Source of the DNA: Candidatus Gottesmanbacteria bacterium
GTDB lineage: Bacteria > Patescibacteriota > Microgenomatia > UBA10105 > UBA927
Reading direction: 5' to 3'
DNA: 64,000 nt
Assembly: GCA_963809665.1 (NCBI GenBank)
Contig: CAWEKC010000005.1
Location: 11,878 to 75,877, forward strand
In this document: one piece after another, positions 11,022-51,137 of the stretch
Position numbering within the stretch: position 1 is the stretch's first letter
Layout of the letters: every line of letters begins with the position of its first letter
The notes under the pieces: model-generated
The model's database searches: none
Told to the model about the DNA's origin: nothing
Seen by the model: only the letters and a program-made list of their open reading frames with translations
Translations under genes and position numbers: made by a program

Positions 11022-13349
11022 ATGAAACATATTGGAAAATATATCAGTATTGCAATGTTAGTTTTTGCCGTCGGGTTTAATCTGTGGCTGTACCGCACGG
11101 AACCTACGGCGAAAGTAGATCCGAATGACAATACATTCCAATTCGCGCTGGTCTACCGGACGAACCAGATATGGGATTTTGCAACCAAAAAGTGTTCAGG
11201 GAATATTTTGACGTTTCCCGTCTGTCACTTCTCCTATCTTGCCGACCACTGGGTTCCTAACTGGAATGAAGGATATAATCTTCCCTTTTATTATTCCCAT
11301 ATCCCACAAATTGTTATCGTCGCCTCCTGGCGGTTCATTCATTTATTCGCGGGATCCATGTCTCTGTTTCAGTATTACCACTATGTTATTTATTTTCTTC
11401 TGTGCCTGTTCCCTCTATCGGTATTTTTAGCCCTCCGGGTTACGGGTCTCCCGTTGATTACTGCGGGACTGGGTACACTATTGGCATCCCAGATCTCCAC
11501 AGACGGGTTATACGGCCTTGATCCGTCGTCATTTTTATGGCGCGGGTACGGCCTAAGCAGCCAGTTGTTTGCCATGATCTGGCTCCCGCTGGCTATCGCG
11601 TACTGCTGGCGCGCGCTATCTTCCAAACGCGCAGTTATTCCTGCGACGATATTCCTCATTCTTACCACGGCCGGACATCTTGGTATTGGTATGATGACAT
11701 TTTTAGCCCTTATTCCCCTGACGCTTGCCGCACCCATATTGGCTTTTTTTCAAAAGCAATCTCCGCAAAAAATATTCGAACCGCTCAAAAAAAATATCAT
11801 AGTGCTTGGTATTATTGCAGTCATCGCCATAGGGTTCTTAAGCTACTGGATCCTGCCGGCAATATCCCTTGATCGATTCCACAATTTTTCCTTCTGGGAT
11901 CCGATATGGAAATTTAACTCCTACGGCGCCAAGGAGACACTGACCCGCCTCGGGAACGGCGCGCTTTTCGATTTCGGGAGGCTGCCTCTTATGACCGGAT
12001 TGGTTCTCGTTGGGCTATTCGCCGGTAGTGCGGAATTTACCATGCTTTTGGTATTTTTCATTCTCCTCTATTTCGGCCGGACAACGTGGGGCAACGTGCT
12101 CGATATTATTCCCGGCATGAAGGAATTCCATTTATCACGTTTTATCGTCGGCGTCCACATGGCCGGCCTCTTTTTGGCTCCAATCGGACTTGCGTGGCTT
12201 TGGGAAAACGCGTCGTCGGCTGTCGCCCGGATTATTCTCATTCCGAAAAAATATATATCGATCGTTCTGTTAATTCTGATTATTGTTTTTATCTTTCCCG
12301 CCATCTACGGGCAAACTGTCCGGTACGCCAAATATAACGATACGCTTATTGCACAGGCCAATGCCAATTATACCAAACAGTCTGCGGGAGCAAGCCGCCT
12401 CGTCGCGGCCCTGCAGGAACTGGAAAAGACAGCGCCCGGCCGGGTGTTTAGCGGGAGGGGCGGCGGGTGGGGCCATAGCTTCGTTCTGGCCGAAACCACG
12501 ATGACGATGTACCTGGGAAATTTTGCATTACCGACCGTATTATGGCTTCCGGAAACCTGGTCACCAAACGGCGACACCGAACAGTATTTCCGCGAAAATT
12601 TCAGCGAAGATTATGATCTTTACAATATCCGCTATGTGGCCGCGCCTGCAAATTTAGCCAAAACCGACATACAACCATTCTGGAAAATGATTCAAAAAAA
12701 TCCGTCATGGAATATTTATGAGGTAAAAACTTCTGGATATTTTACGGCGGGTGTACGGCCTGCAGTTGTTGCATCTGATAAATACTCGTTCACCAACGTC
12801 ATACGTCTCTGGATCCAGTCAAGCGACCCCAAAAACGACCTGTACCCGCAGCTCTCGTTCGACACAAAAAGCTATCCGGTGAACGTAGGATTACCTAACT
12901 TCAAAATGACTGATGAGGTAACGTTTCAGGTGCCAAACGGCTCACTGCACAACATTTTTGCGGAACCGCCGAAATATGAATCCCCCTACCTGCCTGCCGG
13001 CAGGCAGGTTGCCATATCGAACCAGACTGACGACACTGATATGATTTTCACAGCCCGGGCGAGCGTTCCGGATGGCTGCACCGAATGTATGGTAATTTTA
13101 AAACAAACGTTTCATCCCGGATGGCGCATCACTGTGGATGGAAAATCTGTGACGCCTATTATTACATTCCCTTTCTTTATCGGCATTCCGGTTTCCGCAG
13201 GAACACACGAGATCGTCGCCGCATATCAGCCTTCTGCTATAAAAGTAGTATTGATCTGGATCGAATTCCTGACCGTTATTGCCCTCGTTATATGGTTCAT
13301 CGCACGAAAACTGGGGATTGACAAGAAAGCCGTTCATATCCCACACTAA
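11022..13349 (+). CDS. very large polytopic membrane protein (YfhO/GT-C-like putative glycosyltransferase)
   Basis: ~775 aa with many TM helices and a large extracytoplasmic C-terminal domain. Start is at ATG 11022; the track starts at GTG 10983. It contains one copy of the palindromic LPAGRQ element at 12989-13008. Confidence 0.45.
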   Translation: MKHIGKYISIAMLVFAVGFNLWLYRTEPTAKVDPNDNTFQFALVYRTNQIWDFATKKCSGNILTFPVCHFSYLADHWVPNWNEGYNLPFYYSHIPQIVIVASWRFIHLFAGSMSLFQYYHYVIYFLLCLFPLSVFLALRVTGLPLITAGLGTLLASQISTDGLYGLDPSSFLWRGYGLSSQLFAMIWLPLAIAYCWRALSSKRAVIPATIFLILTTAGHLGIGMMTFLALIPLTLAAPILAFFQKQSPQKIFEPLKKNIIVLGIIAVIAIGFLSYWILPAISLDRFHNFSFWDPIWKFNSYGAKETLTRLGNGALFDFGRLPLMTGLVLVGLFAGSAEFTMLLVFFILLYFGRTTWGNVLDIIPGMKEFHLSRFIVGVHMAGLFLAPIGLAWLWENASSAVARIILIPKKYISIVLLILIIVFIFPAIYGQTVRYAKYNDTLIAQANANYTKQSAGASRLVAALQELEKTAPGRVFSGRGGGWGHSFVLAETTMTMYLGNFALPTVLWLPETWSPNGDTEQYFRENFSEDYDLYNIRYVAAPANLAKTDIQPFWKMIQKNPSWNIYEVKTSGYFTAGVRPAVVASDKYSFTNVIRLWIQSSDPKNDLYPQLSFDTKSYPVNVGLPNFKMTDEVTFQVPNGSLHNIFAEPPKYESPYLPAGRQVAISNQTDDTDMIFTARASVPDGCTECMVILKQTFHPGWRITVDGKSVTPIITFPFFIGIPVSAGTHEIVAAYQPSAIKVVLIWIEFLTVIALVIWFIARKLGIDKKAVHIPH
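12989..13008. repeat. GC-rich palindromic element copy A (CCTGCCTGCCGGCAGGCAGG), in frame in a membrane-protein gene (LPAGRQ)
   Basis: 20-nt perfect palindrome read directly from the sequence. Confidence 0.8.
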
Positions 13350-13355
13350 GATCGT

Positions 13356-13565
13356 ATGGCAAAAAGACATGTTCGCCGGGTACATCATACGCCGGTGCGC
13401 CACAAAGCACATACGTCCGGAGACTACCTCGTGGTAGTACGCGGATGGATGTTTGTTGTCGCATTCGCCCTCATGTTGGGGATTGGAGCGATTGTCGGGC
13501 AGTTTATCAGCGCCTACATCGCCTCTTCGACCCCGACAGTAGCAGGGATCACAACAACGAAATAA
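13356..13565 (+). CDS. small hypothetical membrane protein
   Basis: 69-aa ORF with a TM helix, located 7 nt after the previous gene and followed by a terminator hairpin. Confidence 0.3.
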   Translation: MAKRHVRRVHHTPVRHKAHTSGDYLVVVRGWMFVVAFALMLGIGAIVGQFISAYIASSTPTVAGITTTK

Positions 13566-13588
13566 TCAAAGAAGCATAGGCATCCGGT

Positions 13589-13616
13589 CATAGGATTACG
13601 GCCTATGTTTTTTTTG
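13589..13616 (+). terminator. rho-independent terminator
   Basis: A CATAGG/CCTATG 6-bp stem with a 7-nt loop is followed by a run of nine T (13608-13616). A longer alternative stem runs 13575-13607. Confidence 0.5.
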
Positions 13617-13689
13617 TGGACCTGACCGGATTCGAACCGGTGATCTCCGCAATGCGAATGCGGCGCATTACCAACTGTGCTACAGGCCC
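13617..13689 (-). tRNA. tRNA-Ala (anticodon CGC)
   Basis: Cloverleaf folded by hand: acceptor GGGCCUG with a G3:U70 Ala identity pair, anticodon stem CCGCA/UGCGG, loop UUCGCAU, T-arm ACCGG-UUCGAAU-CCGGU. No encoded CCA. Confidence 0.75.
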
Positions 13690-13701
13690 CTTGCCGATGG
13701 G

Positions 13702-14939: not shown

Positions 14940-16565
14940 TCAACCCTGCGACAACGTATCGAGGAATTCGGCGTTGGTTTTAGTTTTTTGCAGCCGTTCA
15001 ATAAGCATCATCGTACGCTCTTCATCTCCGAGCATCGAAAGCATATGGCGAAGTGTCGTCACTTTTTTCATCTGGTCTTCACCGATTAACAGTTCGTCGT
15101 GACGCGTACCGCTTTTGCCGATATCAATGGCAGGAAAAATTCTCCGCTCCTGCAGGGCGCGGGAAAGATGCAGTTCCATATTGCCGGTCCCTTTAAATTC
15201 TTCGTAGATAAGGTCATCCATACGGCTGCCGGTTTCCACAAGTGCCGTACCGATAACCGTGAGTGATCCGCCTGTTACACCTGCTATCCCCTTGCCCCCC
15301 GAAGCTTCAGCGGAGGAGGGTTCCACACAACGGGCCGCACCAAGAAATTTTTTTGCAGGATATAACGCAGCCGGATCAAATCCGCCGGACAGCGTACGGC
15401 CGGAAGGATTGACTACCAGGTTATATGCCCTCGCCAGCCGTGTTATGGAATCCAGAAGTACCACCACGTCTTTACCCATTTCCACAAGACGCTTCGCGCG
15501 ATCCAGTGTCACCTCCGCAATCCTGGTTTGCTCTGCAGGAGACTCATCAAAATTACTTGCCAATACTTCTCCTTTAATGCTTCTGGTTAAATCCGTTACT
15601 TCTTCCGGCCGCTCCCCGATAAGTGCCGCCATGAGGTGGACCTTCGGATAATTGGCGGTAATTCCTGCAGCAAGTTCTTTCAGAATTGTCGTTTTGCCGG
15701 CTTTCGGCGGAGATACTATTAATCCCCGTTGTCCGAATCCGATGGGTGCAACAAGATCAATGATGCGTGTTGAAAGGGGTTGTTCTGTAGTTTCCAGCTT
15801 TAGCTGCTTGTTCGGGTACAGGGGTGTGAGATCTTCAAATTTCGGCCGTGAGGCCATTTCCTCCGCCGGTTTGTCATCAACTTTTTCAACTTTCAGAAGT
15901 CCGAAATACCGTTCGTTGTCTTTCGGAGCTCTGGCCTGGCCTTCCACCATGTCGCCGTTCCGCAGTAAAAACCGACGGATCTGGGACTGGGAAATATACA
16001 CGTCGTGATCGCTCGGGGTAAACTTCGGCCGCAAAAACCCGTGGCCCTCCGGCATAACGTCAAGAATTCCCTTAACGGTTTCCGTCGGTACGTCTATATC
16101 CGCAGTAAACCTGCCTGCCGGCGAGGCAGGTCCGCCGGCCAGCGGTTCGCCGTTTTGAGGCCGCGGCGTCCATTCCCTTCGGTAGCCAGTTGCCGGTCCG
16201 CTTGGTGAATACCCGCGATTTCCGCCATACCCGCCCGGACGGTTTTGATATCCGGCCCCCTGTCTCCGGAATCCGCCGTTAAATCCGCCGCGATTGCGGT
16301 CAAATCCCATACGGGGACGTTCGCTTCTGGGAGGAGGCGTATACGGCAACGGTGCCGGATCAGCCGTTTTTGGTGCAACTACTTTTTGTTCTTCCTTAAC
16401 TACTTTAGGTTCGAATTTCGGACCGCCGATAAGGTCGTCAATGCTCAAGGACGGCGCAACAACTACCGGCTCGATTCGCTGAGTCGAAGTGGGCTCGTCT
16501 GCAGGCGAAGCCTCCGGAACTGTTTTTTTCGGTTTTGCTGATTTTGTGGATGCGCGAAAGGCCAT
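14940..16565 (-). CDS. rho: transcription termination factor Rho with RG-rich N-terminal extension
   Basis: RNA-binding and RecA-like ATPase motifs (GHGFLRP, PPKAGKTTILKEL, Q/R loops). The N-terminal ~170 aa are low-complexity (GGFRRQGAGYQNRPGGYGGNRGY). Confidence 0.85.
   Translation of the reverse strand: MAFRASTKSAKPKKTVPEASPADEPTSTQRIEPVVVAPSLSIDDLIGGPKFEPKVVKEEQKVVAPKTADPAPLPYTPPPRSERPRMGFDRNRGGFNGGFRRQGAGYQNRPGGYGGNRGYSPSGPATGYRREWTPRPQNGEPLAGGPASPAGRFTADIDVPTETVKGILDVMPEGHGFLRPKFTPSDHDVYISQSQIRRFLLRNGDMVEGQARAPKDNERYFGLLKVEKVDDKPAEEMASRPKFEDLTPLYPNKQLKLETTEQPLSTRIIDLVAPIGFGQRGLIVSPPKAGKTTILKELAAGITANYPKVHLMAALIGERPEEVTDLTRSIKGEVLASNFDESPAEQTRIAEVTLDRAKRLVEMGKDVVVLLDSITRLARAYNLVVNPSGRTLSGGFDPAALYPAKKFLGAARCVEPSSAEASGGKGIAGVTGGSLTVIGTALVETGSRMDDLIYEEFKGTGNMELHLSRALQERRIFPAIDIGKSGTRHDELLIGEDQMKKVTTLRHMLSMLGDEERTMMLIERLQKTKTNAEFLDTLSQG
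16110..16130. repeat. palindromic element copy B (CCTGCCTGCCGGCGAGGCAGG, 1-nt variant), in frame in rho (PASPAGR)
   Basis: 21-nt near-palindrome read directly. Confidence 0.7.
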
Positions 16566-17322: not shown

Positions 17323-19458
17323 TCAGAGCACTTTATAAATGACCGTTTCGCCGGAGGTGAAGACAGGAGTCCCTAGCTCGTTGAATTTCGATTCCTGAAG
17401 ATTGGTAAATTTCTGCCGTTCCAGTGTTCCGACAAAAATATATCTCACCTGATATTTTTCCAAAACCGCTTTCGTCTCATTGATATCCGTTGATTCATAA
17501 ATCAGCTTCACTTCTTCTTTGCGCGGCGCAACGATGTCATAGGACCCGCGCCAGAGCCATTCATGGACGGACCATCCCACAATGGTCGGTATCCCAGTAA
17601 ACACGCTTACCTGGTCGTAATCGGTGTAACTGTCTCCGTCGGCTTCCACAAGCACGGGATTGTGGCCTAATTTCCCATTTTTAAGTCCTTCATTCAACCA
17701 TTGAATTCCCGCCCAATTATCCTGATACTGGGTACTGATCCATCCCGTCCCGTTAATTCCCTCATACTGTTTCAGGCTATTGAAATACGACCGTACGCTG
17801 AAAATGGGATAAATGGACACCAGGAACAGTTGCGGGGCTAATAATATAAAAAACAGCATCCGTTTTTTGTGCCGTGTCATCGTAGCGATCACATATCCGG
17901 AAATAATCGAAAACATGATAAATGCCTGATACCCCAGTTTGAACATTGTGTTGCTACGGAAATGCATGGGGTAGATATCTTTAAAATAGAAAAATTCAGG
18001 AAAAATAATAAGAAGAATTGAAAACACAAAAAATATTCCCAGCAGGAGATCCTGATGTTCCGGCAATTTATTACGTGTGATTTTTTTAATCAACGGGACG
18101 AGTAAAAATAATCCGCAGTAGATGAAAAATCCCCACAGCAACCACATCATCCACAGCGGGCTATGCTGGCACTTTTCCACTCCCTCAAACAGAACCGGCC
18201 CGAATTTCGTATCGGCAAGAGCCGCGGGCGGACAATTGACGGCAATCCCCGAAACAAACGATTTGAAATATAGTAAAAACGGCAAACTGCATATACCCGC
18301 CGTAATTATCGTAATGCCGCCCGTAATGGCCGCCTTTTCCCATGATAGCTTTTTGAAAACCGCGTTGAATACAACTAACGCTATGAGAAATAATCCCAGA
18401 TATATCGGCCCGTCCAGTGCGTTGGTCATCAGGAGCACGCTGCACAAAAATCCGTAAAAAATATAGATACCCCATTCGCTTTTTTCCTGCCTGCCGGCAG
18501 GCATATCCATAAACAACCGTATAAGAAGCGCTATGGCCAAAAGCACAAACGGGATTGACAGTACGTGCCCGTGGACGTCCGACACGACAAACGAGTAGCT
18601 CGGAAATTCATGGATCGTATACGGGATAAACCGCGTAGCATTGGCATACCAGTAACGGTTCAGGCCGTCCGGCAGGCGGGAAATGAAATTCCCGATCGGC
18701 CACAGAATTGTCCAGAACGGCACAACCTTGTCCCCATCATACCCCTGGGTAAACGCGTAAATCGTCTGCATGTTGCCCGCAAGGGTTACCAGAAATGCGG
18801 TAAAGAGTCCTCCCCCGATTTTCCCGGCAATACTCATCCCTTTTCTGACGCGTAACAGTTGCACCCCGATACCAAACGACATGGTGCAGGTGAATGCAAA
18901 AATCGCCGCCAGCATAAGATTAAACGTATACGTAAGATCGATACCGCTCATCCGTGTCAGGACCGCCATGACGGTATGCCCGAAATAATAGTAGTTAATG
19001 GTGCCTCCGGCGTACCACATATCCGGCGCCGGAAAAAATTTGCTATCAAGGATGGATTTGGTAAAACCGAAATCCATAAATTTTTCAAGATTATGGATGC
19101 TCGGCTCGTGCGCTTTTACCCAGGACCACAATAAAAGTGCGGCAAAAAAGAACAGTTCCTCCGATACCATACGGAGAGCGTTATTCCGTATATTTCCCTT
19201 TTCCCCTGAATTTTTTCTCCGGAGGATTACTCCGGCTGCAAATGTGAGTCCCATGGCGCCCCACACAGCCCCCTGAGTAAACGGGATGATGTGGAGTACT
19301 CCGGCCAAATACACGAGGAACGTCACTACCGCCATACCCACGGCTTTGGAGAAAATATACGATAACCCTAATTTTCGGGTGAGAGGATATGCCACCGCGC
19401 CGATCAAAAATAACGTTCCCCACCATTGGAAAACTATTACCACATCTGACATCGGCAT
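17323..19458 (-). CDS. DUF2298 / Chlor_Arch_YYY family polytopic membrane protein (putative GT-C-like)
   Basis: 711 aa, multi-TM, with the signature GGTINYYYFGH (YYY motif). Carries the palindromic element at 18486-18503 (MPAGRQ). Confidence 0.6.
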   Translation of the reverse strand: MPMSDVVIVFQWWGTLFLIGAVAYPLTRKLGLSYIFSKAVGMAVVTFLVYLAGVLHIIPFTQGAVWGAMGLTFAAGVILRRKNSGEKGNIRNNALRMVSEELFFFAALLLWSWVKAHEPSIHNLEKFMDFGFTKSILDSKFFPAPDMWYAGGTINYYYFGHTVMAVLTRMSGIDLTYTFNLMLAAIFAFTCTMSFGIGVQLLRVRKGMSIAGKIGGGLFTAFLVTLAGNMQTIYAFTQGYDGDKVVPFWTILWPIGNFISRLPDGLNRYWYANATRFIPYTIHEFPSYSFVVSDVHGHVLSIPFVLLAIALLIRLFMDMPAGRQEKSEWGIYIFYGFLCSVLLMTNALDGPIYLGLFLIALVVFNAVFKKLSWEKAAITGGITIITAGICSLPFLLYFKSFVSGIAVNCPPAALADTKFGPVLFEGVEKCQHSPLWMMWLLWGFFIYCGLFLLVPLIKKITRNKLPEHQDLLLGIFFVFSILLIIFPEFFYFKDIYPMHFRSNTMFKLGYQAFIMFSIISGYVIATMTRHKKRMLFFILLAPQLFLVSIYPIFSVRSYFNSLKQYEGINGTGWISTQYQDNWAGIQWLNEGLKNGKLGHNPVLVEADGDSYTDYDQVSVFTGIPTIVGWSVHEWLWRGSYDIVAPRKEEVKLIYESTDINETKAVLEKYQVRYIFVGTLERQKFTNLQESKFNELGTPVFTSGETVIYKVL
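18486..18503. repeat. palindromic element copy C (CCTGCCTGCCGGCAGGCA), in frame in the DUF2298 gene (MPAGRQ)
   Basis: 16-nt perfect palindromic core TGCCTGCCGGCAGGCA. Confidence 0.75.
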
Positions 19459-19490: not shown

Positions 19491-20711
19491 ATGAAAGTTG
19501 CGGTTGTCGGCGGCGGTTTCACGGGACTTGCCGCGGCATATGAACTGACAAAACATGGGGCCACGGTGACGCTGTTTGAATCTGCACCGGTAGTTGGGGG
19601 GTTGGCGCACGGATTCAAAAAGGCCGGTTGGACATGGCACCTAGAATATGCCTATCACCACTGGTTTACCGGTGACCGCGCGGCACTGGATCTGATTAAA
19701 GAATTAGGCCTCACACAGAAACTTATTATTACCCGGCCGATTACTGCTTCCCTGTATGATGGAAAGCCGTATGAATTAGATTCACCCGTGAATTTATTAA
19801 CATTTCCGGGGCTTTCACTATCCGATAAGTTCCGTACTGCGGCGCTCCTTGGATTTCTTAAAATCAATCCATTTTGGAAACCTTTGGAAAATATCTCTGC
19901 TGAACACCTTTTAACCTCAATAGGTGGTCGGCGTTCATACGCCATGCTTTGGGAACCGCTACTTGCCGGCAAGTTCGGTACCTTGGCACCAACTATCCAG
20001 GCAGCTTGGTTCTGGGCGCGGATAAAAAAGCGGACGCCGCGTTTAGTATATATGGAGGGAGGCTTCCATACGCTGATTGCTGCACTCGAAAGCACTATAA
20101 AAAAAGGGGGCGGTATAATCCGCACGAATACCACGGTTGCTTCAATGAATGACCTGTCAGGATTTGATAAAATTTTATTTACCGTACCCAGCCCGGTTGC
20201 CCAAAAAATCGTTCCTCAACTCCGGATCGATCTTATCCCCCATCTCACGGCACAAACCTTAATTCTGGAAACCGACAGCCCGGTTCTGAAAAACGTGTAT
20301 TGGCTTAATATCACGGACCGTTCGTTTCCGTTTTTAGCGGCAGTATTCCACACAAATTTTATGGAAAAAAAATATTACGGTGGTCACCACCTGACATACT
20401 TCGGCAATTATCTTCCGGCGGATCACCCCTATCTTTCCATGACCAAAGATCAATTATTGAAAAAATTCATGCCGTATATCAAACGTCTTTCACAAAATTT
20501 TCCAATAAAAATTTTAGACTCTTTTATATTTACCGGATCGTTTGCCCAGCCGGTCCACCAACTGCATTATTCATCCCATACACCAAAACTTATTACATCC
20601 ATTCCGAATGTCTATATGGCCAACATGGACAGTATCGTACCCTGGGATCGTGGGACCAATTATGCTATTGAATTAGGACAAAAGGCAGCGCAGAAAATCA
20701 TGGAAACATGA
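19491..20711 (+). CDS. FAD-dependent oxidoreductase (amine oxidase / protoporphyrinogen oxidase-like)
   Basis: N-terminal dinucleotide-binding motif VAVVGGGFTGLAAAYEL...LFE...GGL. 406 aa. Stop overlaps the next gene's start. Confidence 0.65.
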   Translation: MKVAVVGGGFTGLAAAYELTKHGATVTLFESAPVVGGLAHGFKKAGWTWHLEYAYHHWFTGDRAALDLIKELGLTQKLIITRPITASLYDGKPYELDSPVNLLTFPGLSLSDKFRTAALLGFLKINPFWKPLENISAEHLLTSIGGRRSYAMLWEPLLAGKFGTLAPTIQAAWFWARIKKRTPRLVYMEGGFHTLIAALESTIKKGGGIIRTNTTVASMNDLSGFDKILFTVPSPVAQKIVPQLRIDLIPHLTAQTLILETDSPVLKNVYWLNITDRSFPFLAAVFHTNFMEKKYYGGHHLTYFGNYLPADHPYLSMTKDQLLKKFMPYIKRLSQNFPIKILDSFIFTGSFAQPVHQLHYSSHTPKLITSIPNVYMANMDSIVPWDRGTNYAIELGQKAAQKIMET

Positions 20712-22333
20712 AAAAACTACTTATTTTTATCATAATTTTTGGAGCCATTCTGCGCTTTACCGCAATCAACTGGGATTCGTTCGGCGCGTTCCACCCGGAC
20801 GAAAGAAATATTTCCTGGGCCGTGACACGTATCCGGTTTTTCTCGCAGATGAACCCGAAATTTTTCGCGTATGGGGGGTTGCCGGTCTATCTGTACCGCG
20901 CGCTGGGCGAAGGCGTTGTAGCGGCGACACATAACGATATCTGGCTTGCAGACTGGGGGCACATTGCCGTTATCGGGCGCTCCGTTTCTGCCGTACTGTC
21001 GACCATAAGCATATTCTTAATCTACGTAGCCGGCGCCGCGTATTTCACTCCCGGAGTCGGACTTCTTGCGGCTTCACTCCTTGCGTTTTCCCCATGGGCA
21101 ATACGGGAAGCGCATTTCGAAACCACCGAAACCATGCTGGTATTTTTCCTACTGGCTATGAGTATCGTTGCGCGCCGGCTATTCCAAAAACCAAACCGCC
21201 GCAGCGTCGTACTTATCGGGTTAGTGTGGGGCCTCGCTATGGCGGCCAAAACTACGAGCATACTGTTCGGCCTTATACCAACCGCAGCCATCTGGTTTCC
21301 GCATCACATCTTTAAAAATATTCCTAAAAAAATCCTGTACACGTTCATGTTGGGCTGTACATCTGTTTTTATTTTCTTCCTTTTCTCTCCGTATACGCTC
21401 CTGGACTTCACACATTTCCGCGAGTCCATGACGTATGAATCCGGAGTGGCCCTGGGGCGTTTTTCGGTTGTCTATACACTTCAGTTTCTGAATACCACTC
21501 CGTATCTTTTCCAACTGCAAACAATGCTCTGGCAGGCGGGGCCGTTAGGTATCATCGGAATGTTCGGTCTTATCGGACTGGTAATCATAGTGTTCAGGAA
21601 AAAATTTTATCTTGTGCCGTTGTTACTATTCCCCGTTCTCTATTTTAGTTGGGTCGGTTCGTGGTATGCAAAATTCAACCGCTACAACGTGCCGTTCTTA
21701 CCGTTTGTCACCATTGCGGCGGCATGGTTTTGTGTTGTCATCAGTAAACGTTTTCGTATAGCCGGCACAGCGTTAACTCTGCTTGTACTTTCCGCAACCA
21801 TCTTGTGGGGACTGGCTAATTGGACTGTATACCTGCGGCCCCAAACGCGTTTGACTGCATCCGAATGGATGTTTACCCATATTCCCTCAGGTGCCACGAT
21901 CTACACGGAACACTGGAATGACGGACTGCCGATCGACCTGCCTGCGCAGGCAGGCCTGCCGGATGCAGTTAGGTATAACCGCGAACTACTTACAGTATAC
22001 GACGAAGACAATGCAGCCAAAAAAAACTACTATGCCGATAAGCTTGTCACCGGAGATTTCATCGTCCTATCGACCCGGCGTATGTGGGCTACGATGCCGC
22101 GGCTTGGTGAAAAATATCCGCTGACAAAATTATTTTACCAACGGTTATTAGACGGATCTTTAGGATACAAAGAGGTCGGCCGCTTTACGTCCTATCCGCA
22201 ACTATTCGGCGTCTCTGTCAATGATGACGGCGCGGAAGAATCCATCCAGGTCTTTGATCATCCCACGGTCTTAATTTTCCAAAACGTAGCGCACTATTCC
22301 AATGGGGAATATCTCACATTGTTGACGCCATAA
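20708..22333 (+). CDS. GT-C family 39 / ArnT-like glycosyltransferase
   Basis: 541-aa multi-TM protein with an N-terminal FHPDERN DE-motif loop and a soluble C-terminal domain. Carries the palindromic element at 21937-21954 (LPAQAG). Confidence 0.7.
   Translation: MKKLLIFIIIFGAILRFTAINWDSFGAFHPDERNISWAVTRIRFFSQMNPKFFAYGGLPVYLYRALGEGVVAATHNDIWLADWGHIAVIGRSVSAVLSTISIFLIYVAGAAYFTPGVGLLAASLLAFSPWAIREAHFETTETMLVFFLLAMSIVARRLFQKPNRRSVVLIGLVWGLAMAAKTTSILFGLIPTAAIWFPHHIFKNIPKKILYTFMLGCTSVFIFFLFSPYTLLDFTHFRESMTYESGVALGRFSVVYTLQFLNTTPYLFQLQTMLWQAGPLGIIGMFGLIGLVIIVFRKKFYLVPLLLFPVLYFSWVGSWYAKFNRYNVPFLPFVTIAAAWFCVVISKRFRIAGTALTLLVLSATILWGLANWTVYLRPQTRLTASEWMFTHIPSGATIYTEHWNDGLPIDLPAQAGLPDAVRYNRELLTVYDEDNAAKKNYYADKLVTGDFIVLSTRRMWATMPRLGEKYPLTKLFYQRLLDGSLGYKEVGRFTSYPQLFGVSVNDDGAEESIQVFDHPTVLIFQNVAHYSNGEYLTLLTP
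21937..21954. repeat. palindromic element copy D (CCTGCCTGCGCAGGCAGG), in frame in the GT39-like gene (LPAQAG)
   Basis: 18-nt perfect palindrome, followed by a third partial half-site CCTGCC. Confidence 0.8.
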
Positions 22334-22790: not shown

Positions 22791-22808
22791 GCTGCCTGCG
22801 CAGGCAGG
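22791..22808. repeat. palindromic element copy E (GCTGCCTGCGCAGGCAGG), intergenic
   Basis: 16-nt perfect core preceded by a T-run on the + strand. Lies just 3' of the small minus-strand ORF. Confidence 0.75.
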
Positions 22809-22970
22809 TTAGAGCGTAAACACCGGAATACTTAACCCTTTATCTTTCAGCTTCTGGAACTGTTCCTTTACTTCTGCCTCAAACCGTTCCCTCTCGCGGG
22901 TCATCGGCGATTTACGTTCCGTTTTAACGCCAAAACGGCCGCCCAACCCTAAACGCATTAAAAGTAGTTT
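22809..22970 (-). CDS. small hypothetical protein (~53 aa)
   Basis: MKLLLMRLGLGGRFGVKTERKSPMTRERERFEAEVKEQFQKLKDKGLSIPVFTL. A TTGACA-like hexamer and a GGATG spacing lie upstream. Palindrome copy E lies immediately 3' of the stop. The track ORF is longer (to 23021). Confidence 0.25.
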   Translation of the reverse strand, partial: KLLLMRLGLGGRFGVKTERKSPMTRERERFEAEVKEQFQKLKDKGLSIPVFTL

Positions 22971-23190
22971 CATGTTCATACATCCATTCAAACACGACTG
23001 CAATCTCTTGTCAAGTCCCATAGGTTTTTTATATACGGAAATTGTGATGACTTATAGTTAAATATATATTAATTAGAAGGTATTAACGGTCTATAATTAT
23101 TTAGGAAAATAATTGTGGATAACTTGGGGAAACAGAAAACTTGCGGATTGGTTATTTTACCTATAATGTAGTAGTAGGCAACTTAGGATC

Positions 23191-24465
23191 ATGAAACATA
23201 AAATAATAGCATTTATTTTATTCTGGACGGCAATAATCTTTTTCGGACTATTTCCCCTTCCCCGCCCGACGTATGCAGACTATCAGGAACTTGGAAAAAA
23301 AGAGTTGTTGGGTCCGATTGGTCAAAATAGTTCCCAATATTCACCATGGATCATGCACGGACAGGGATGGGGCAGCTACGTGATGTATTACTGTAAAAAT
23401 TCGCCGATTAACAATGTCTGGCGCGACCGGGTATATCGGATTGAAAACTTTAATGACGGCATATCAGGAAGCTGGATCGGCGACCAACCGGTAATCGAGG
23501 GTTCTGACGGCCAAAATGATGATTTGTCCTGTTCCCCCGGGGTTCTTATAGACAATCAAAATACGTGGCATATGTATTACGTCACGGCAAACAGGAACAC
23601 CGGTTGTGATGTGTACCTATACCACGCAACAGCAACCGCCCCGGGAACAAATTGGGTGAAACAAGGTGTTATCAATATCGATGGGAAACCGATGTCCGCT
23701 GTTCCAAACTGTAATCTTGAAACACCAAGTCCGTATTTTATTAACGGTACATATGTACTTTATTATGCAGGCGCCCCCGGTAAAATAGTTCGTCTTGAAA
23801 GTACTGACGGATATAATTTTACCAATCAGACAACCATAAGTCTTCGCGAACCGTTGGGAGGATCCGGCAGGGTAATAATCGTTAACGGACAGTATTACTA
23901 TACGTACAACAGGAATCCTACAAGCGGATACTTACCCTCCACACAAATACTTATAACACAATCGTCGGACGGGATACATTTCTCTCCATCTGAATTACTT
24001 ATGGCTTCGTCAGGATCAGGTTGGGATGGTGACAGGATGTGGAGCCCTTTTCCGATGTTTGTTAATAATGAATTACGGGTGTATTACGCCGGCAATATCG
24101 GTAATTATGGGTGGTTTGGTGCAAATACGTCAATTGGCGTCCGTTGGTTCAGTATGCCAACTATGACTACGCCTACGCCAACGAAAACACCCACGCCGAC
24201 GCCAACCAGAACCCCGACACCTACCCCGACACGCACTCCTACATTGACTCCCACGGCAACAATCAGATTAACCCCGACTCCTACTCCTGCTTCCATACCC
24301 GGTGATCTCAATGGTGATCATACGGTCAATATTTTTGACTACAACATACTGATCGGCGATTTCGGGAAAACCGGTTCACCGGGCTGGATTCCGGCTGATA
24401 TCAATAAAGACGGAAAAGTAGATATTTTCGATTATAATGCGCTGGTAGGTAATTTTGGAAAATAA
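23191..24465 (+). CDS. secreted beta-propeller (glycoside-hydrolase-like) protein with Pro/Thr linker and C-terminal type-I dockerin
   Basis: N-terminal signal peptide. Repeated WHMYY/YVLYYAG/YYYTYN blade-like motifs. Linker [25 protein letters not shown]. Two dockerin repeats [21 protein letters not shown] and [21 protein letters not shown]. Confidence 0.7.
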
Positions 24466-33974: not shown

Positions 33975-33981
33975 CTTCGCT

Positions 33982-34258: not shown

Positions 34259-34272
34259 ACCATAGAACAGTT

Positions 34273-36430: not shown

Positions 36431-36469
<39 letters not shown>

Positions 36470-36682
36470 GTATTCATGTATTTAGCCTTGGATCGTGGTC
36501 GACCCAGATTCCCACAGACCCTTCGTGGTCCATGGTACTTAGGAACCAATTAGCGGAAATTATCATGTCGAATACGAGGCTTTCACTCTCTCTGGCCGCC
36601 TATTCCGAGGCGTTCTTCTACAACAATTTCATCACATATCACTGGCCCTACAACCCCAATCCTTGCGGATTGGTTTAGGCTG

Positions 36683-36714
<32 letters not shown>

Positions 36715-40407: not shown

Positions 40408-41127
40408 TTAATAAAATAATTCAGATTTCACCTGGTTGTCCTGGACGCCGGCGGCTTTCAATTTCGCACGAATATCCGCCACCATCGCTTTATTGCCACA
40501 CACATAGTACTCTGCGTCCTTGAGATTTTGCTGAGAAAATAGGTAATCCTGTACATGTCCTCCGCGCCAGCCGGCGGACTGACCTGTCGTATGGGGCTGC
40601 GAAAGAATAAGCATATAATGAAAATTCGGATATTGATTCTGTAGCTGCTCAAATTCTTTTTGCCAAAAAATATCCTCCTCATGGCGGAGCCCCCAATAGA
40701 GCATGACGTCCGCTGCACCCCCGGAAGCTAAATAATCCCTCGCTATCACGTAAAACGGCGTCATACCGGTACCGGTGGCAACTAATACTTTATTCCGCGG
40801 GCTTTTCCGATCGAGGATAAACGCACCCAGTGGCCCCATAAACTCCATTTCGTCCCCGACCTTGGCCGAAATCGCCCACTTCGAATACGGTCCCATGGGC
40901 GACACGTCATGGAAAAATGTTATTGAGTTCTTTTCCGAAGGAGGAGACGCAATGGACATGGTGCGGTTGATGCCGGGCGCCACATACAACATCACTGTTT
41001 GACCCGCGATAAAGGTAATTTCTTTAGGCTCAATGAGTTCGAACCGTTCAAGATACACCTTGCTTGAAATTTTATCGATCGCCGCGAGCCGGGCTTTAAA
41101 TCTTTGAGGGGTGGTAAGTGTCATCAT
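40408..41127 (-). CDS. FAD/NAD(P)-binding oxidoreductase, ferredoxin-NADP+ reductase-like
   Basis: FNR-like beta-barrel FAD domain (RxYS-type MSIASPP) plus NAD(P)-binding motif LVATGTGMTP. Four-nt overlap with trxB. Confidence 0.65.
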   Translation of the reverse strand: MMTLTTPQRFKARLAAIDKISSKVYLERFELIEPKEITFIAGQTVMLYVAPGINRTMSIASPPSEKNSITFFHDVSPMGPYSKWAISAKVGDEMEFMGPLGAFILDRKSPRNKVLVATGTGMTPFYVIARDYLASGGAADVMLYWGLRHEEDIFWQKEFEQLQNQYPNFHYMLILSQPHTTGQSAGWRGGHVQDYLFSQQNLKDAEYYVCGNKAMVADIRAKLKAAGVQDNQVKSELFY

Positions 41128-42068
41128 ATGGAGGTGGCTTCAAGATATCTCTGCACATCAAGAGCAGCCATACAGCCCATACCAGCAGCTACAACGGCCT
41201 GGCGGTATTGGAAATCCACACAATCGCCTGCGGCAAATATCCCGGGGACATTCGTTCCGGTATGGTAATCGCCGGGTTTGCGAAGACCATGGACAGACAC
41301 ATATCCTTTCGGATCGTGTTCCAGCAATTCACCTAAGAATCCTGTGTTTGGCTTATGTCCGATTGCCAAAAACACTCCCTGAGTCGGATATACCTCGACC
41401 GTACCGGTCGAGGTATCTTTCATACGCACGCCCGTCACTGCAGTATCGCCTAAAATTTCTTCGATGATTTTATTCGTGAGCATGGTGATCTTGGGATTCT
41501 TTTTGGCACGCGCCAGCATTATTGGGCTTGCCCGGAACGCTTCCCTTCTATGAATAATCGTTACTTTTGTTGCGAATGTCGTTAAGAAATTTCCATCTTC
41601 CATCGCCGTATCCCCGCCGCCTATAACGACCACTTCTTTGCCTTTGAAGAAAAATCCGTCACACGTGGCACATGCGGATACACCGTGACCGGTTAGTTTT
41701 TTTTCTGACGGCAGCCCTAAATACATCGCAGAGGCGCCGGCGGCTACAATGACCGCCCGTGCCTCATATTGCTTTCCGCCTGCGGTAATAACGAATGTAT
41801 TCCCTTTTTGTGCTTTTGACACGTTTGATACTTCGGATACCTCTATCTCCGTCCCGAACCGGCTAACCTGCGCCTTCATGTCGAGCATCAGCTGCGGTCC
41901 CGTTATCCCTTTCGGAAACCCGGGGAAATTTTCGATTTCCGTCGTTGTGGTAAGCTGCCCGCCCTCCTCCAAACCCGTAAAAATCTTCGTTTTCAGGAAT
42001 GCACGTGAGGTATAGAGGGCTGCGGTGTATCCGGCAGGACCGCTGCCGATAATGATGACGTCGTACAT
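41124..42068 (-). CDS. trxB: thioredoxin-disulfide reductase
   Basis: GSGPAGYTAA FAD motif, redox-active CATCDG, second Rossmann VVVIGGGDTA. Confidence 0.9.
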   Translation of the reverse strand: MYDVIIIGSGPAGYTAALYTSRAFLKTKIFTGLEEGGQLTTTTEIENFPGFPKGITGPQLMLDMKAQVSRFGTEIEVSEVSNVSKAQKGNTFVITAGGKQYEARAVIVAAGASAMYLGLPSEKKLTGHGVSACATCDGFFFKGKEVVVIGGGDTAMEDGNFLTTFATKVTIIHRREAFRASPIMLARAKKNPKITMLTNKIIEEILGDTAVTGVRMKDTSTGTVEVYPTQGVFLAIGHKPNTGFLGELLEHDPKGYVSVHGLRKPGDYHTGTNVPGIFAAGDCVDFQYRQAVVAAGMGCMAALDVQRYLEATSI

Positions 42069-49900: not shown

Positions 49901-49921
49901 GAAACATTGTTTAACCGGAAT

Positions 49922-49955
49922 ATCCCCCGAAGCTTTAGCGGAGGGGGATTTTTCG
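49922..49955 (+). terminator. rho-independent terminator
   Basis: ATCCCCC…GGGGGAT 7-bp GC stem followed by TTTTT. Confidence 0.5.
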
Positions 49956-49964
49956 TGCATGGCG

Positions 49965-50624
49965 TCAAAGATACAGCGCTACGGTCATGTTCCAGAAGAT
50001 GTGGACCAGAATCGGGGCAACGAGTGACCCCGTGTTGTAATAGAGGAGGCTGTTGGCGATCGCAAGAACCAAATCCGTCACCAAAAAGAGAATGAGTGTC
50101 GGTCCCTGCAGTTTTGTCATCGTAACCAGAATCGGAATATGGAGGAGGACAAACATCACCGAAGAAACAAGGGATGAGTACATCAGGTTCTTTGTTTTTT
50201 CATACAAACGGTTAAAAACAAACCCGCGCGCGAGTAATTCTTCCGTACAGGCCGTTGCCAGCGACAAAATAATGAGGAAAAATCCGTACTGCTGGAATGC
50301 GGCAATCGGGTTAACGTCCCATGTTCCGTATTTGACGGCATGAGTAACCATGCCTTCAAGCGCAAATACAATACCGAACCCCAACCCGATATATACGCTG
50401 GAAAAAAAATTACGACGGGTGATCCCTAGCGTTGCTAAACTCTGTTTTTCTTTATTGCGGACGTACCAGATGACCGGTGCCACAAACACGAGCGGCTTGA
50501 AGATAAACTCATCGGCCCATTCGGGGAGTTTGAAAAAATACCGGTACAGGCTCCACGCCAGGAGAATCCATGCCCAGAGACGAAAAACACTGGAAACCGA
50601 CGTCACTACTTTTTTGGCAGCCAT
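49965..50624 (-). CDS. CPBP family intramembrane metalloprotease (CAAX protease-like)
   Basis: EELLARGF (EExxxR), FxxxH and HIFWN motifs in TM helices. Confidence 0.8.
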   Translation of the reverse strand: MAAKKVVTSVSSVFRLWAWILLAWSLYRYFFKLPEWADEFIFKPLVFVAPVIWYVRNKEKQSLATLGITRRNFFSSVYIGLGFGIVFALEGMVTHAVKYGTWDVNPIAAFQQYGFFLIILSLATACTEELLARGFVFNRLYEKTKNLMYSSLVSSVMFVLLHIPILVTMTKLQGPTLILFLVTDLVLAIANSLLYYNTGSLVAPILVHIFWNMTVALYL

Positions 50625-50645
50625 ACTATTACAATACCCACTCGT

Positions 50646-51137
50646 TCATTTTGGTGCAAGTATCAATACCGCCTCGCGCATGGTACCTACCAACTGATTC
50701 ACCTGTTCCACGGCCATATCACGTGTAAGCGACCGGTAGTTGTGGGGGAAATAGTGGAATACCATGTTCCTCCCCTCTTTCCACGTATGCCAAAGCCGTG
50801 CCGCCAGCTGATCGCCGTATCGGTCGCTGATTTGTTTATACGCACTTCTGTCGCCGAGACGGTGGACCATATTCGGAGACAATACTTTACCGATACGGAA
50901 ATGGTCGCTCCTGTACTCGCGGTCGGATATAATGTGTGCGTCCAGAAATAATTTTTTCAAAAATCCTTCGTAGAGCTTCGCGAACGGGAATACAAGGTAT
51001 GAAAAATCCTGCCTGCCGGCAGGCAGGCCGTCGGCTGTATGCCTGATACTGTCTTCAATCAAGAACTCCCCGTCCCGGACGAGCGCCCGCATATCCGGCG
51101 CCAAATACTGCCAAAGTGCTGAGGTTTCTTCCATCAT
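50646..51137 (-). CDS. hypothetical protein (contains palindromic LPAGRQ insert)
   Basis: Start taken at MMEETSALW (ATGA overlap with the upstream gene stop). No family recognised. Confidence 0.4.
   Translation of the reverse strand: MMEETSALWQYLAPDMRALVRDGEFLIEDSIRHTADGLPAGRQDFSYLVFPFAKLYEGFLKKLFLDAHIISDREYRSDHFRIGKVLSPNMVHRLGDRSAYKQISDRYGDQLAARLWHTWKEGRNMVFHYFPHNYRSLTRDMAVEQVNQLVGTMREAVLILAPK
51008..51027. repeat. palindromic element copy F (CCTGCCTGCCGGCAGGCAGG), in frame in a hypothetical gene (LPAGRQ)
   Basis: Identical to copy A. Confidence 0.8.

Follow-up and report, generated by a model that had tools for sequence, protein, structure and literature searches.

The perfect 20-nt palindrome P20, of the form (CCTG)2-CCGG-(CAGG)2, is found with no letter changed in many bacterial phyla and is linked to small GIY-YIG cassettes at tRNA genes, both of which go beyond the earlier note on this DNA. 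Six palindromes of the P20 family, which includes sub-variants of 18, 19 and 21 nt, lie in the 64-kb window (the whole stretch of Candidatus Gottesmanbacteria DNA that was analysed), i.e. about one per 10 kb, and they are best read as belonging to a very small, dispersed hairpin repeat that is not specific to the source genome. The GIY-YIG genes lodged at tRNA genes beside P20 are a pointer to how it may spread.

All six palindromes were found where the earlier note had placed them, and five of them are indeed inside unrelated genes (YfhO-like, rho, DUF2298, PMT_2 glycosyltransferase and small HEPN-like); the sixth, copy E, is intergenic.

Copy A, 12989..13008: perfect 20-mer CCTGCCTGCCGGCAGGCAGG, which with its flanks makes a 22-nt palindrome (12988-13009); in the YfhO-like gene 10983-13349 (+), peptide YLPAGRQV.
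Copy B, 16110..16130: 21-nt variant CCTGCCTGCCGGCGAGGCAGG with one extra G; in the low-complexity N-terminal domain of rho, 14940-16565 (-), peptide PASPAGR.
Copy C, 18486..18505: CCTGCCTGCCGGCAGGCAta, an ATG variant on the coding strand, matching at 18/20 positions with a perfect 16-nt core; in the DUF2298 gene 17323-19458 (-), peptide MPAGRQE.
Copy D, 21937..21954: perfect 18-mer CCTGCCTGCGCAGGCAGG with the CG centre missing; in the PMT_2-family glycosyltransferase gene 20708-22333 (+), peptide LPAQAG.
Copy E, 22791..22808: gCTGCCTGCGCAGGCAGG, a 17/18 match to the 18-mer of copy D; intergenic, abutting the stop codon of a small 69-aa ORF, 22809-23018 (-).
Copy F, 51008..51027: perfect 20-mer; in a small conserved gene, 50646-51200 (-), annotated start Met22, whose protein has a weak HEPN_RnaseLS match; peptide GLPAGRQD.

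The earlier claim that these copies exceed chance is borne out in the window. There are 9 occurrences of the 9-mer arm CCTGCCTGC where 0.21 would be expected (maximum of 2 in 100 shuffles), all of them confined to the six copies, and the full 20-mer is absent from all shuffles of the window. Five of the six copies fall within 9.8 kb (P ~0.012 under uniform placement). A search of the window at up to 4 edits gave no additional decayed copies except two weak candidates. As DNA, P20 folds into an 8-bp stem with a 4-nt loop (-8 kcal/mol), and it contains no stop codon in any of the three frames. No oriented flank, conserved flanking tetranucleotide or subterminal asymmetry was found for P20, its flanks showed no general hairpin-forming potential, and no separated half-site pairs bracketing an ORF were found.

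In a contig scan covering 596 Gb, the exact 20-mer is present in at least 79 loci, compared with about 0.54 expected. Among the at least 120 loci listed, 81 matches have a 2-nt centre, which is CG in 79. The hosts of the exact 20-mer belong to at least seven phyla, including CPR, Bacteroidota, Omnitrophota, Planctomycetota and others, and 35 stretches of viral contigs also carry P20. The carriers are mostly metagenome-assembled genomes; isolate genomes with P20 include those of Winogradskyella echinorum, Flagellimonas yonaguniensis, Algoriphagus formosus and Zunongwangia pacifica. Comparison of the neighbouring genes among the at least 120 P20 loci revealed no common family and no recurrent transposase.

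Alignment with related Gottesmanbacteria orthologues shows the window copies, at the level of sequence, to be lineage-specific gains in hypervariable loops, and P20 insertion within this Gottesmanbacteria lineage to have been recent and repeated. Empty orthologous sites are known for four of the five genic copies, so that the lineage-specific insert which the earlier note had proposed to check by orthologue alignment is upheld there. The syntenic 19-22 kb of the closest relatives hold no copy (L236) and one copy (L238), against five in the window, and the density of P20 in close relatives is about 8 per Mb.

At the copy A site the closest orthologues (L236, 82%; L238, 76%; P0002-P0005) read SPISPIPTV, the window having a net 3 nt more. 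The identical 20-mer is also present at this codon in the more distant P0006 and P0024/L124, and P0023 has it three codons before. The window and L124 have identical 20-mers but flanks that differ by ~27% in protein sequence, a combination that calls for recurrent insertion, gene conversion or selection acting on the DNA. Copy B is missing in L121 (an exact 7-aa gap), L236 and L238; the N-terminal domain of rho has its own, independent copies at three other positions in L121, L122 and L132, and the 21-mer of copy B is found again at an unrelated site, L121:3082. Compared with L121 and L124, copy C adds 21 nt to a loop that is of variable length across all 45 relatives examined and that holds an out-of-register copy in L238 and a split copy in L142. 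Copy D is an exact 6-aa (+18 nt) insertion relative to L122, L125 and L160. At the copy F site the majority allele among 120 homologues is IRH-RDAPPT-DFSY, and IRHTADGLPAGRQDFSY, with a net gain of 4 aa (+12 nt), is confined to the window, P0122 and P0155. In other lineages the same loops carry independent copies at different positions. Copies A and F are replacements with loss of flanking bases, not clean insertions.

The earlier note held that all genic copies lie in one phase, which is true only of copies A and F (LPAGRQ) and C (MPAGRQ), whose registers are identical. Copy D is in this register for its first half only (LPAQAG), and copy B (PASPAGR) is in other registers. The copies at large show a preference for the LPAGRQ frame, which is without cysteine and is used by 22 of the 37 ORF-spanning copies (P = 0.001). 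They also show that genic copies are kept only in length-tolerant loops and with a net change divisible by three, frame neutrality being reached either by the 18- and 21-nt variants or by a 20-mer plus loss of flanking bases (net +3 and +12 nt). Because the unit is 20 nt and the survivors are frame-neutral variants or compensated events, the frame is maintained by selection. Therefore, of the miniature frame-preserving insertion element envisaged earlier, the very small inserted palindrome stands, given the empty orthologous sites and the +20-nt insertions in tRNA fragments, but frame preservation is not a property of a 20-nt element. Similarly, the suggested likeness to Rickettsia palindromic elements holds for the outcome, in-frame peptides in tolerant loops, but not for frame preservation by the element itself.

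Wherever the empty site is readable, the insertion is exact and without target duplication. At three loci (L056, L232 and L245) it is an exact +20-nt insertion of this kind in displaced or duplicated tRNA fragments, and the target-site duplications suggested earlier as a check are absent from the clean insertions. At three other loci (L031, L063 and L035) P20 is nested in P20, one base off centre, and at L015 it lies inside the loop of an SRM hairpin; its targets thus include tRNA-like DNA stem/loop junctions, the loops of other hairpin repeats and its own loop. In four independent cassettes with different tRNAs, 8-12 nt separate P20 from the end of the tRNA fragment. Flanking direct repeats of at least 7 nt or heptamer arrays accompany 11% of the copies, compared with 0.6% of control positions.

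Palindromes of the P20 family are found about 10-60 nt from genes for ~80-aa single-domain GIY-YIG (UPF0213/SLX1-like) proteins, which form mini-cassettes beside tRNA genes. P20 is 19-41 nt upstream of the GIY-YIG ORF in L056, L232 and L091 and ~30 nt downstream in L115; in these four, as in L243, L245, L254 and L256, one flank of the gene has it. Of six genes of this kind, four are within 50 nt of P20 (P ~6e-5). When eight homologues were taken, irrespective of any palindrome, from one family of ~80-aa GIY-YIG genes next to tRNA genes, four had a palindrome of the P20 family no more than 60 nt away; a fifth had an exact P18 at ~440 nt. In 5 of 16 homologues the over-called N-terminus translates P20 right before the true Met. 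The family is named in Patescibacteria, Omnitrophica and Bacteroidota, in agreement with the range of P20. All partner proteins match Pfam GIY-YIG PF01541, and the solved structures nearest to them are those of UPF0213 proteins and of SLX1, a structure-specific nuclease. The 64-kb window has no GIY-YIG gene, ~1 Mb of Gottesmanbacteria-like relatives yielded only Ssn-type genes with NTS-like hairpins and not the P20-linked subfamily, and more than 90% of the P20 copies have no GIY-YIG gene in their vicinity. In this family, the cassettes at tRNA-Ser carry other hairpins. As a counter-point, the proximity of P20 and GIY-YIG genes could reflect their shared build-up in the scarce neutral DNA near tRNA genes.

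In the NTS/SRM system a small single-strand nuclease, Ssn (GIY-YIG cd10448), goes with hairpin repeats that reach hundreds of copies and span phyla (Chenal et al. 2025, PMC11893778). By analogy with the Neisseria NTS-Ssn pair, it is an evenly balanced proposition that the window copies are orphans of a hairpin repeat whose partner is a small structure-specific nuclease. P20 would be the cognate hairpin of a UPF0213/SLX1-like nuclease, in the way that the Ssn GIY-YIG single-strand nucleases have NTS/SRM hairpins as theirs. The gene of this UPF0213/SLX1-like enzyme would lie elsewhere in the source genome, and its product would nick single-stranded hairpin DNA, after which repair or template switching may copy the hairpin to new sites. 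The cassettes could cross phylum boundaries because their tRNA target genes are universally conserved; P20 would travel along, and such transfer would account for its identity everywhere. Counting against this reading are the lack of a P20-linked GIY-YIG gene in the window and in the ~1 Mb of relatives, the distance of most copies from such genes, the other hairpins of the tRNA-Ser cassettes, the P20 flanks without general hairpin-forming potential, and the replacements at A and F together with the 20-mer shared by the window and L124.

It is possible, though on the whole doubtful, that P20 is instead an independent hairpin parasite, moved in trans by an HUH/IS200-like, RAYT-like or other enzyme or by replication template-switching at hairpins. 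Its proximity to GIY-YIG genes would then be incidental, because neutral DNA is rare and P20 and the cassettes both collect in what there is of it next to tRNA genes. Single-strand 'peel and paste' elements are recognised by exact insertions that leave no target duplication, and both the excess of direct repeats and heptamer arrays (11% versus 0.6%) and the flank loss at copies A and F are expected from template switching; a GIY-YIG neighbour is missing for most copies, no neighbour family is common to them, and the other hairpins in the tRNA-Ser cassettes also agree with an incidental association. However, the window has no transposase and none recurs among the at least 120 loci, an HUH-type GTAG/CGTC tag or subterminal asymmetry is absent, identity across phyla is hard to reach without a conserved sequence-specific partner, and the 8-12 nt spacing in four independent cassettes looks mechanistic.

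Less probable still is a selected recognition sequence (a dimeric protein site or a DNA-uptake or anti-uptake signal) spread between alleles by transformation and recombination with no inserting enzyme. That the window and L124 have one and the same 20-mer at a shared codon, with ~27% protein divergence of the flanks, agrees with it, as do the presence or absence of copies at A and F independently of overall similarity, which fits inter-lineage recombination, and the near lack of a tail of decayed copies. Uptake sequences (USS/DUS) in coding regions prefer tolerant loops and one frame, and the preferences of P20 resemble theirs. A further point in its favour is that surface-glycosylation genes are the surroundings in which five of the six copies cluster, much as the Neisseria NTS do near membrane-protein genes (PMC11893778). 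Against these points, one 20-mer is found in at least seven phyla, whereas uptake sequences are lineage-specific; exact +20-nt insertions went into non-functional tRNA fragments and into P20 itself; copies within one loop differ in register; the density in close relatives is only about 8 per Mb; and no regulator or restriction-modification gene was found nearby. The restriction or methylation site considered earlier finds no support in the window, which is without a methyltransferase, restriction, transposase or GIY-YIG gene.

That P20 is a sequencing or assembly artefact, a chance product of composition or the result of convergent selection for the peptide LPAGRQ is refuted for practical purposes: the carriers are mostly metagenome-assembled and the head-to-head 10+10 palindrome resembles an adapter junction, but P20 occurs in four isolate genomes, is inherited at orthologous sites in independent samples, is limited to certain phyla, is run through by open reading frames and is never produced by shuffling, while its presence in intergenic DNA, tRNA fragments and all three frames cannot be explained by peptide selection.

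Returning to the pairing of P20 with a nuclease, several known systems may be compared. Like REP/REPIN sequences, whose mobilisation is attributed to a single-copy gene (RAYT) acting in trans, P20 is a short GC-rich dispersed palindrome. In contrast, the GTAG/CGTC tag, the extragenic and species-specific occurrence and the HUH Y1 transposase of REP/REPIN do not hold for P20, which has no tag, has five of six window copies in genes and has no transposase in the window. A cut-and-paste DDE MITE disagrees with the lack of target duplication at L056, L232 and L245 and of half-site pairs bracketing an ORF. DUS/USS are lineage-specific, oriented 9-12-mers at about one per kb that arise by point mutation, whereas P20 is palindromic, spans at least seven phyla and arrives as whole insertions.

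Rickettsia palindromic elements, which Ogata et al. are said to have described in 2000, are reportedly ~100-150 bp, restricted to Rickettsia and of lengths compatible with translation. P20 likewise adds an in-frame peptide at tolerated positions of unrelated genes, but it is 20 nt, not a multiple of three, and crosses phyla; it does not belong with them, as its frame is kept only via variants or compensating loss.

The small dispersed repeats (SDR) of cyanobacteria are, in the account given through two later papers, 21-27 nt and confined to Nostocaceae (Elhai et al. 2008 via PMC3116915, PMC5861425). Going by that account, P20 resembles SDR as a mobile-looking repeat of ~20-27 nt, without coding capacity and nested in other repeats, and differs in sequence and in a range beyond Nostocaceae; the cyanobacterial HIP1 is an 8-mer accumulating without insertion, unlike P20. 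SDR are also said to be associated with heptamer tandem repeats, and to our knowledge neither SDR nor HIP1 has a nuclease partner.

Free-standing GIY-YIG homing-endonuclease genes carry a replacement piece of their target gene, and in fungal mitochondria small GC-rich palindromic clusters occur near tRNA genes and sometimes inside coding sequence. The P20 cassette similarly has its ORF in a conserved gene and, next to the ORF, a duplicated piece of that gene, and P20 is a small GC-rich palindrome scattered near tRNA genes and sometimes coding. The homing systems are, however, mitochondrial or of phages, with larger multi-domain enzymes, and the palindromes are of other sequence and not cross-phylum.

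The comparison with NTS/SRM has differences as well. Unlike the SRM consensus HGTCWYN(0-2)YYVSBRHN(0-5)WNVSBRGN(0-2)RNCYNB, P20 is a perfect palindrome with no GTC head and no oriented flank, and a scan of the window for SRM and NTS matches found none. NTS stand on both sides of the gene, whereas P20 stands on one side, inside a displaced tRNA fragment; the P20 partners are nearest UPF0213/SLX1 and only 41% identical to the NTS-flanked Ssn-type proteins of related genomes. Only 2% of NTS are inside genes, in contrast to five of the six window copies, and tRNA genes, CPR and Bacteroidota are unmentioned in that report (PMC11893778). The likenesses are that P20 is a short GC-rich hairpin in many copies with little change across distant taxa, that in other genomes it is linked to the gene of a single-domain GIY-YIG protein (80-95 aa) while most copies are orphans, and that its copies cluster near membrane-protein genes.

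Six palindromes of the P20 family (a 20-nt palindrome with sub-variants of 18, 19 and 21 nt) are found in the window, all six at the positions at which an earlier note on this DNA had placed them:

Copy A, 12989-13008: perfect 20-mer, CCTGCCTGCCGGCAGGCAGG, in a YfhO-like membrane protein
Copy B, 16110-16130: 21-mer with one G added, in the low-complexity N-terminal domain of rho
Copy C, 18486-18505: two end bases altered, in a DUF2298 membrane protein
Copy D, 21937-21954: perfect 18-mer without the central CG, in a PMT_2 glycosyltransferase
Copy E, 22791-22808: 17/18 match to the 18-mer of copy D, intergenic
Copy F, 51008-51027: perfect 20-mer, CCTGCCTGCCGGCAGGCAGG, in a conserved small protein that matches HEPN weakly

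The five host ORFs are unrelated, as the note had stated, and its claim that the repeat exceeds chance is equally borne out. The 9-nt arm of P20 occurs 9 times in the window against 0.21 expected from dinucleotide-preserving shuffles, all occurrences fall inside the six copies, and the full 20-mer is absent from all shuffled sequences. A search of the window allowing up to 4 edits yielded essentially no additional copies, so that there is no tail of decayed P20. The flanks of copies A-F, compared within the window, have nothing in common, and the unit is therefore the palindrome alone. As single-stranded DNA it is computed to form a hairpin (-8 kcal/mol) with a stem of 8 bp and CCGG in the loop. 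No Rfam family matches the window copies at the gathering threshold, and no transposase, restriction-modification or GIY-YIG gene is present within the 64-kb window. The DNA is that of a candidate-phyla-radiation (CPR) bacterium, and those homologues of its proteins that bear names belong to Candidatus Gottesmanbacteria.

Outside the window, one genome per species was scanned for two P20 arms 0-2 bases apart, which gave at least 120 loci; about 0.5 exact 20-mers would be expected by chance in the whole 596 Gb scanned. Among the matches listed, a 2-base centre is CG in 79 of 81. Also among the matches listed, 80 loci bear organism titles, and these comprise CPR (~26), Bacteroidota (~15, including the isolates Winogradskyella echinorum and Flagellimonas yonaguniensis), uncultured Gammaproteobacteria (~9), Omnitrophota (~6), Planctomycetota/PVC (~6), delta-type proteobacteria (~6), Acidobacteriota (~4) and others (~8); many of the P20 carriers listed have a G+C content of 35-45%. 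The 20-mer is also present in 35 stretches of viral contigs. From locus to locus the flanking sequences show no relationship, apart from a slight tendency to A ahead of the palindrome and T behind it. No match was found in the literature for the 20-mer, a 13-mer core, or LPAGRQ, the peptide encoded by one of its frames. P20 is not private to its source genome; it belongs to a cross-phylum hairpin family that appears to be undescribed.

The history of the genic copies may be judged from orthologues, for which 80 related loci with the DUF2298 protein, two closer syntenic loci (L236 and L238) and protein homologues of the hosts of copies A and F were compared. At site B, exactly 7 codons are missing in the relative L121, and 11 in L236 and L238. 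Site C is shorter by exactly 7 codons (21 nt) in L121 and L124, the nearest relatives, and copy D is an exact 6-codon insertion with respect to L122, L125 and L160. The loop that holds copy C differs in length in each of 45 relatives; in L238 it contains a P20 copy in another codon register, and in L142 one that a 36-nt insert interrupts. At site A, the window has SPYLPAGRQV and the closest orthologues (82-76% identity) have SPISPIPTV, a net change of +3 nt, and hence sequence was replaced there. The identical 20-mer occurs at the same codon in the more distant homologues P0006 and P0024 (the latter from L124), and three codons earlier in P0023. At site F, the majority allele is RH-RDAPPT-DF, which is replaced by RHTADGLPAGRQDF in the window and in two others, with a net gain of 12 nt. 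The earlier reading of P20 as an inserted palindromic element is largely right. B, C and D are clean gains relative to orthologues; A and F are replacements with loss of flanking sequence. Over the syntenic 19-22 kb there are no copies in L236, one in L238 and five in the window, and ~0.95 Mb of relatives contain 8 near-perfect copies. Together with the orthologue gaps, these counts indicate that the window copies are recent, recurrent, lineage-specific gains that persist in tolerant loops.

The rho gene is at 14940-16565 (-) of the window. Its N-terminal domain, an Arg/Gly-rich low-complexity region of ~150 aa, differs in length and sequence in every relative, and P20 lands there repeatedly: L121 (AMSAGRQG), L122 (AMPAGRQG) and L132 (GMPAGRQG) have copies of their own at three other positions. 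Exactly at the site of copy F (window ORF 50646-51200), the homologues P0126, P0130, P0134, P0137, P0145, P0159 and P0160 carry another insert of 6-7 aa, T(P/L)P(L/V)ASSGA (e.g. TPPLASSGA), for which back-translation, a guess from the protein alone, gives a putative CCGCTCG...CGAGCGG hairpin. If so, several hairpin elements would compete for the same loops.

In genes, P20 is filtered by frame and by loop tolerance. The earlier note held that the element preserves the reading frame; a unit of 20 nt does not do so by itself, and this claim has to be given up. The clean genic insertions are of 18 nt (D) or 21 nt (B and C); where the 20-mers A and F stand, flanking bases have been lost. In L121, the 21-mer seen in copy B is found again at an unrelated, non-orthologous site, and it therefore represents a sub-family and not a local repair. 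None of the frames of the palindrome contains a stop codon, and both alternatives to the LPAGRQ frame bring in cysteine. Of 37 copies flanked on either side by 60 or more codons of open frame, the LPAGRQ frame is used by 22 (P = 0.001), and every such copy in a low-GC genome, where open frames are credible, reads in that frame. Considering this bias, the length of the unit, and the 18-nt, 21-nt or compensated genic copies, frame and phase come from selection and not from P20. A relative of P20 at L234:3927-4130 forms ten 21-nt units in tandem, CCATGCCTACCGGCAGGCAGG, which would encode the repeated heptapeptide MPTGRQA.

Insertion of this constant 20-nt hairpin is recurrent, recent and exact. 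An exact comparison with the empty site is possible at three loci, because a tRNA 5' fragment is duplicated there and only one of the copies has the palindrome:

L056, tRNA 5' fragment: GGTAGA/P20/GCAGCGGC
L232, tRNA 5' fragment: GGTA/P20/GAGCGG
L245, tRNA 5' fragment: GGATA/P20/GAATAT

Each has exactly 20 nt more than the empty site, and target duplication is absent. In L031, L063 and L035, P20 lies inside another P20, one base off the centre, i.e., in its own loop. In tRNA-like DNA it is located at the stem/loop junctions of the D, anticodon and T arms, and also in the variable loop. The viral contig L225 (2239-2330) has a tRNA-Met with P20 in the variable loop, which ARAGORN still calls as a tRNA-Met of 92 nt with P20 as a long extra arm; a truncated version is found in L202. 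Individual cases of P20 at a hairpin do exist (L075, L015 and the tRNA arms), but P20 does not as a rule cap a larger hairpin, since the folding energies of its flanks are those of control positions. The possibility that P20 represents abutted insertion-sequence ends was rejected, as no gene lies between two separated half-sites and the 'solo' half-sites proved to be full copies that have degenerated. Flanking direct repeats of at least 7 nt or heptamer tandem arrays accompany 11% of the copies and 0.6% of the controls. Short tandem arrays of heptamers, e.g. AATTATC, TATTTCG and GAGTGAT, often surround P20, at times within coding loops too; they were seen at L142:4190-4243, L121:3082, L076, L051, L088, L099 and L222. 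In L076, the P20-heptamer unit precedes, as read by eye, a candidate four-helix-bundle (23S rRNA IVS-type) gene.

Several other features of the window were recorded:

41390-41416: 27-nt palindrome with 12-nt arms, ATACCTCGACCGTACCGGTCGAGGTAT
41124-42068 (-): thioredoxin-reductase-like ORF containing this palindrome, which encodes DTSTGTVEVY
32731-36955 (-): 23S rRNA gene with two group I introns, 33027-33251 and 33997-34222
34335-34907 (-): LAGLIDADG_1 homing endonuclease ORF within the 23S rRNA gene
23191-24465: dockerin-domain ORF
24495-25682: adjoining cohesin-domain ORF, with Thr/Pro-rich tandem repeats of 60 and 18 nt at 25115-25432

A palindrome of 27 nt in 64 kb is far above chance, and this one may reflect a further hairpin event in frame. 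Group I introns and LAGLIDADG genes in the 23S rRNA gene are typical of CPR genomes. The intron-encoded LAGLIDADG enzyme was set aside as a binder of the 20-bp palindrome, since P20 occurs in many genomes and contexts without relation to that intron.

P20 is identical across phyla and is in tight physical linkage with tRNA-associated GIY-YIG mini-cassettes. When ORFs within 1.5 kb of 126 copies were clustered, no dominant family was found, the largest groups having 4 loci each among the loci listed; the link emerged only from close-range geometry. A small GIY-YIG ORF begins 19-41 nt past P20 in L056, L232 and L091, and in L115 one ends ~30 nt ahead of a 19-nt variant. In loci selected by the palindrome, four of six such genes lie within 50 nt of it (P about 6e-5). 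A profile search gave 7,802 GIY-YIG homologues, with Patescibacteria, Omnitrophica and Bacteroidota among those named, and their taxonomic range is that of P20. In 5 of the 16 homologues with an over-called start, P20 is translated (TCLPAGR, LPAGRQV), 5-17 codons upstream of the true Met. For eight homologues chosen blind to the palindrome, the DNA was fetched: a P20-family palindrome is present within 60 nt in four (L243, L245, L254 and L256), and a fifth has an exact 18-mer ~440 nt distant. Four tRNA-Ser cassettes, one of them that of the fifth homologue, have other GC-rich hairpins, CCAGCCCTAGGCTGG and TCCGCCTTGGGCGGA, in place of P20 at the equivalent position. A scan of viral contigs for the GIY-YIG family gave two loci only.

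The order in the cassettes is a displaced tRNA fragment, ~10-20 nt, an ORF of ~80 aa and an intact tRNA, or the mirror image. The displaced fragment is identical to the real tRNA and always interrupted by one or two GC-rich palindromes; in the cassettes with a 5' fragment (n = 4), P20 lies 8-12 nt from the fragment end, at the junction of anticodon stem and loop. Mini-cassettes were seen in L056, L232, L245, L254, L256, L115 and L243, and in L242 and L246-L253, with tRNA genes for Lys, Arg, Leu and Ser; L246-L251 have two GIY-YIG genes in tandem, each ahead of a tRNA-Ser. The cassette proteins match Pfam GIY-YIG, and NCBIfam has no names for them; among solved structures they come closest to UPF0213 proteins and to SLX1, a structure-specific nuclease. 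Their identity is 41% to GIY-YIG proteins that have, in Gottesmanbacteria-like relatives, flanking hairpins like NTS, one of the repeats (NTS/SRM) paired with Ssn GIY-YIG nucleases. Ssn-type genes with NTS-like hairpins (GTCATCCC..GGGATCC) were seen in Gottesmanbacteria-like relatives and one Bdellovibrionales genome (L122:8353-8610, L130, L136, L144 and L015:3250-3453). In L015, a second NTS-like (SRM) hairpin carries P20 in its loop.

The cassette protein is a plausible nuclease partner of P20. In the reading that seems most likely, the hairpin would be the recognition structure of a cassette-type GIY-YIG nuclease encoded elsewhere in this genome; the enzyme would nick single-stranded hairpin DNA, repair or template switching would then copy P20, and cassettes aimed at the universally conserved tRNA genes would ferry it between phyla. 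It may be suggested, tentatively, that no mobile DNA yet seen is smaller than P20, which would be a bare hairpin that UPF0213/YhbQ-like GIY-YIG proteins copy in trans, these proteins acting as structure-specific single-strand nucleases and moving between phyla as tRNA-gene homing cassettes. To our knowledge, no function has so far been assigned to these widespread small proteins.

The proximity of GIY-YIG genes might instead be incidental, P20 being spread by another trans-acting enzyme or by pure template switching, which we regard as rather doubtful. It seems unlikely that P20 is kept by selection as a binding or uptake signal and spread by recombination. Artefact, chance or peptide selection is excluded for practical purposes, because P20 is found in isolates, is inherited at orthologous sites, has open frames running through it, and has intergenic, tRNA and other-frame copies.

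If copying in trans by GIY-YIG proteins is true, P20 would quite generally supply peptide insertions to the proteins of CPR, Bacteroidota and other bacteria, and a non-coding 20-nt hairpin would be able to cross phyla and remodel protein loops, those of essential genes such as rho included. The large UPF0213-type family would have a concrete, testable candidate substrate, and the newly described hairpin-nuclease (Ssn) principle would extend to tRNA-targeting cassettes of uncultivated lineages. As a practical point, P20 and its peptide LPAGRQ are marks of recent insertion, and both can lead gene callers astray and distort alignments of CPR proteins.

Among known systems, the cyanobacterial SDR elements (21-27 nt) are, by description, nearest to P20 in size. 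Rickettsia palindromic elements have the in-frame outcome in common with P20, but not the size and distribution, and P20 fails one defining feature each of REP/RAYT, cut-and-paste MITEs, HIP1 and uptake sequences. The closest functional precedent is Ssn with NTS/SRM. Ssn proteins (cd10448), which are small and consist of a single GIY-YIG domain, cut single-stranded DNA site-specifically and bind the hairpin repeat flanking their own gene, and the repeat has hundreds of scattered copies in distant taxa (Chenal et al. 2025, PMC11893778); tRNA genes, CPR and Bacteroidota go unmentioned in that paper. A scan of the window for SRM/NTS gave zero matches. P20 fails the SRM consensus and has no oriented flank. 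In contrast to NTS, it lies on one side of the gene, within a tRNA fragment, and its copies in the window are mostly genic, whereas 2% of NTS copies are (PMC11893778). On these grounds P20 is not counted in the SRM family, and is treated here, by analogy, as working like an SRM.
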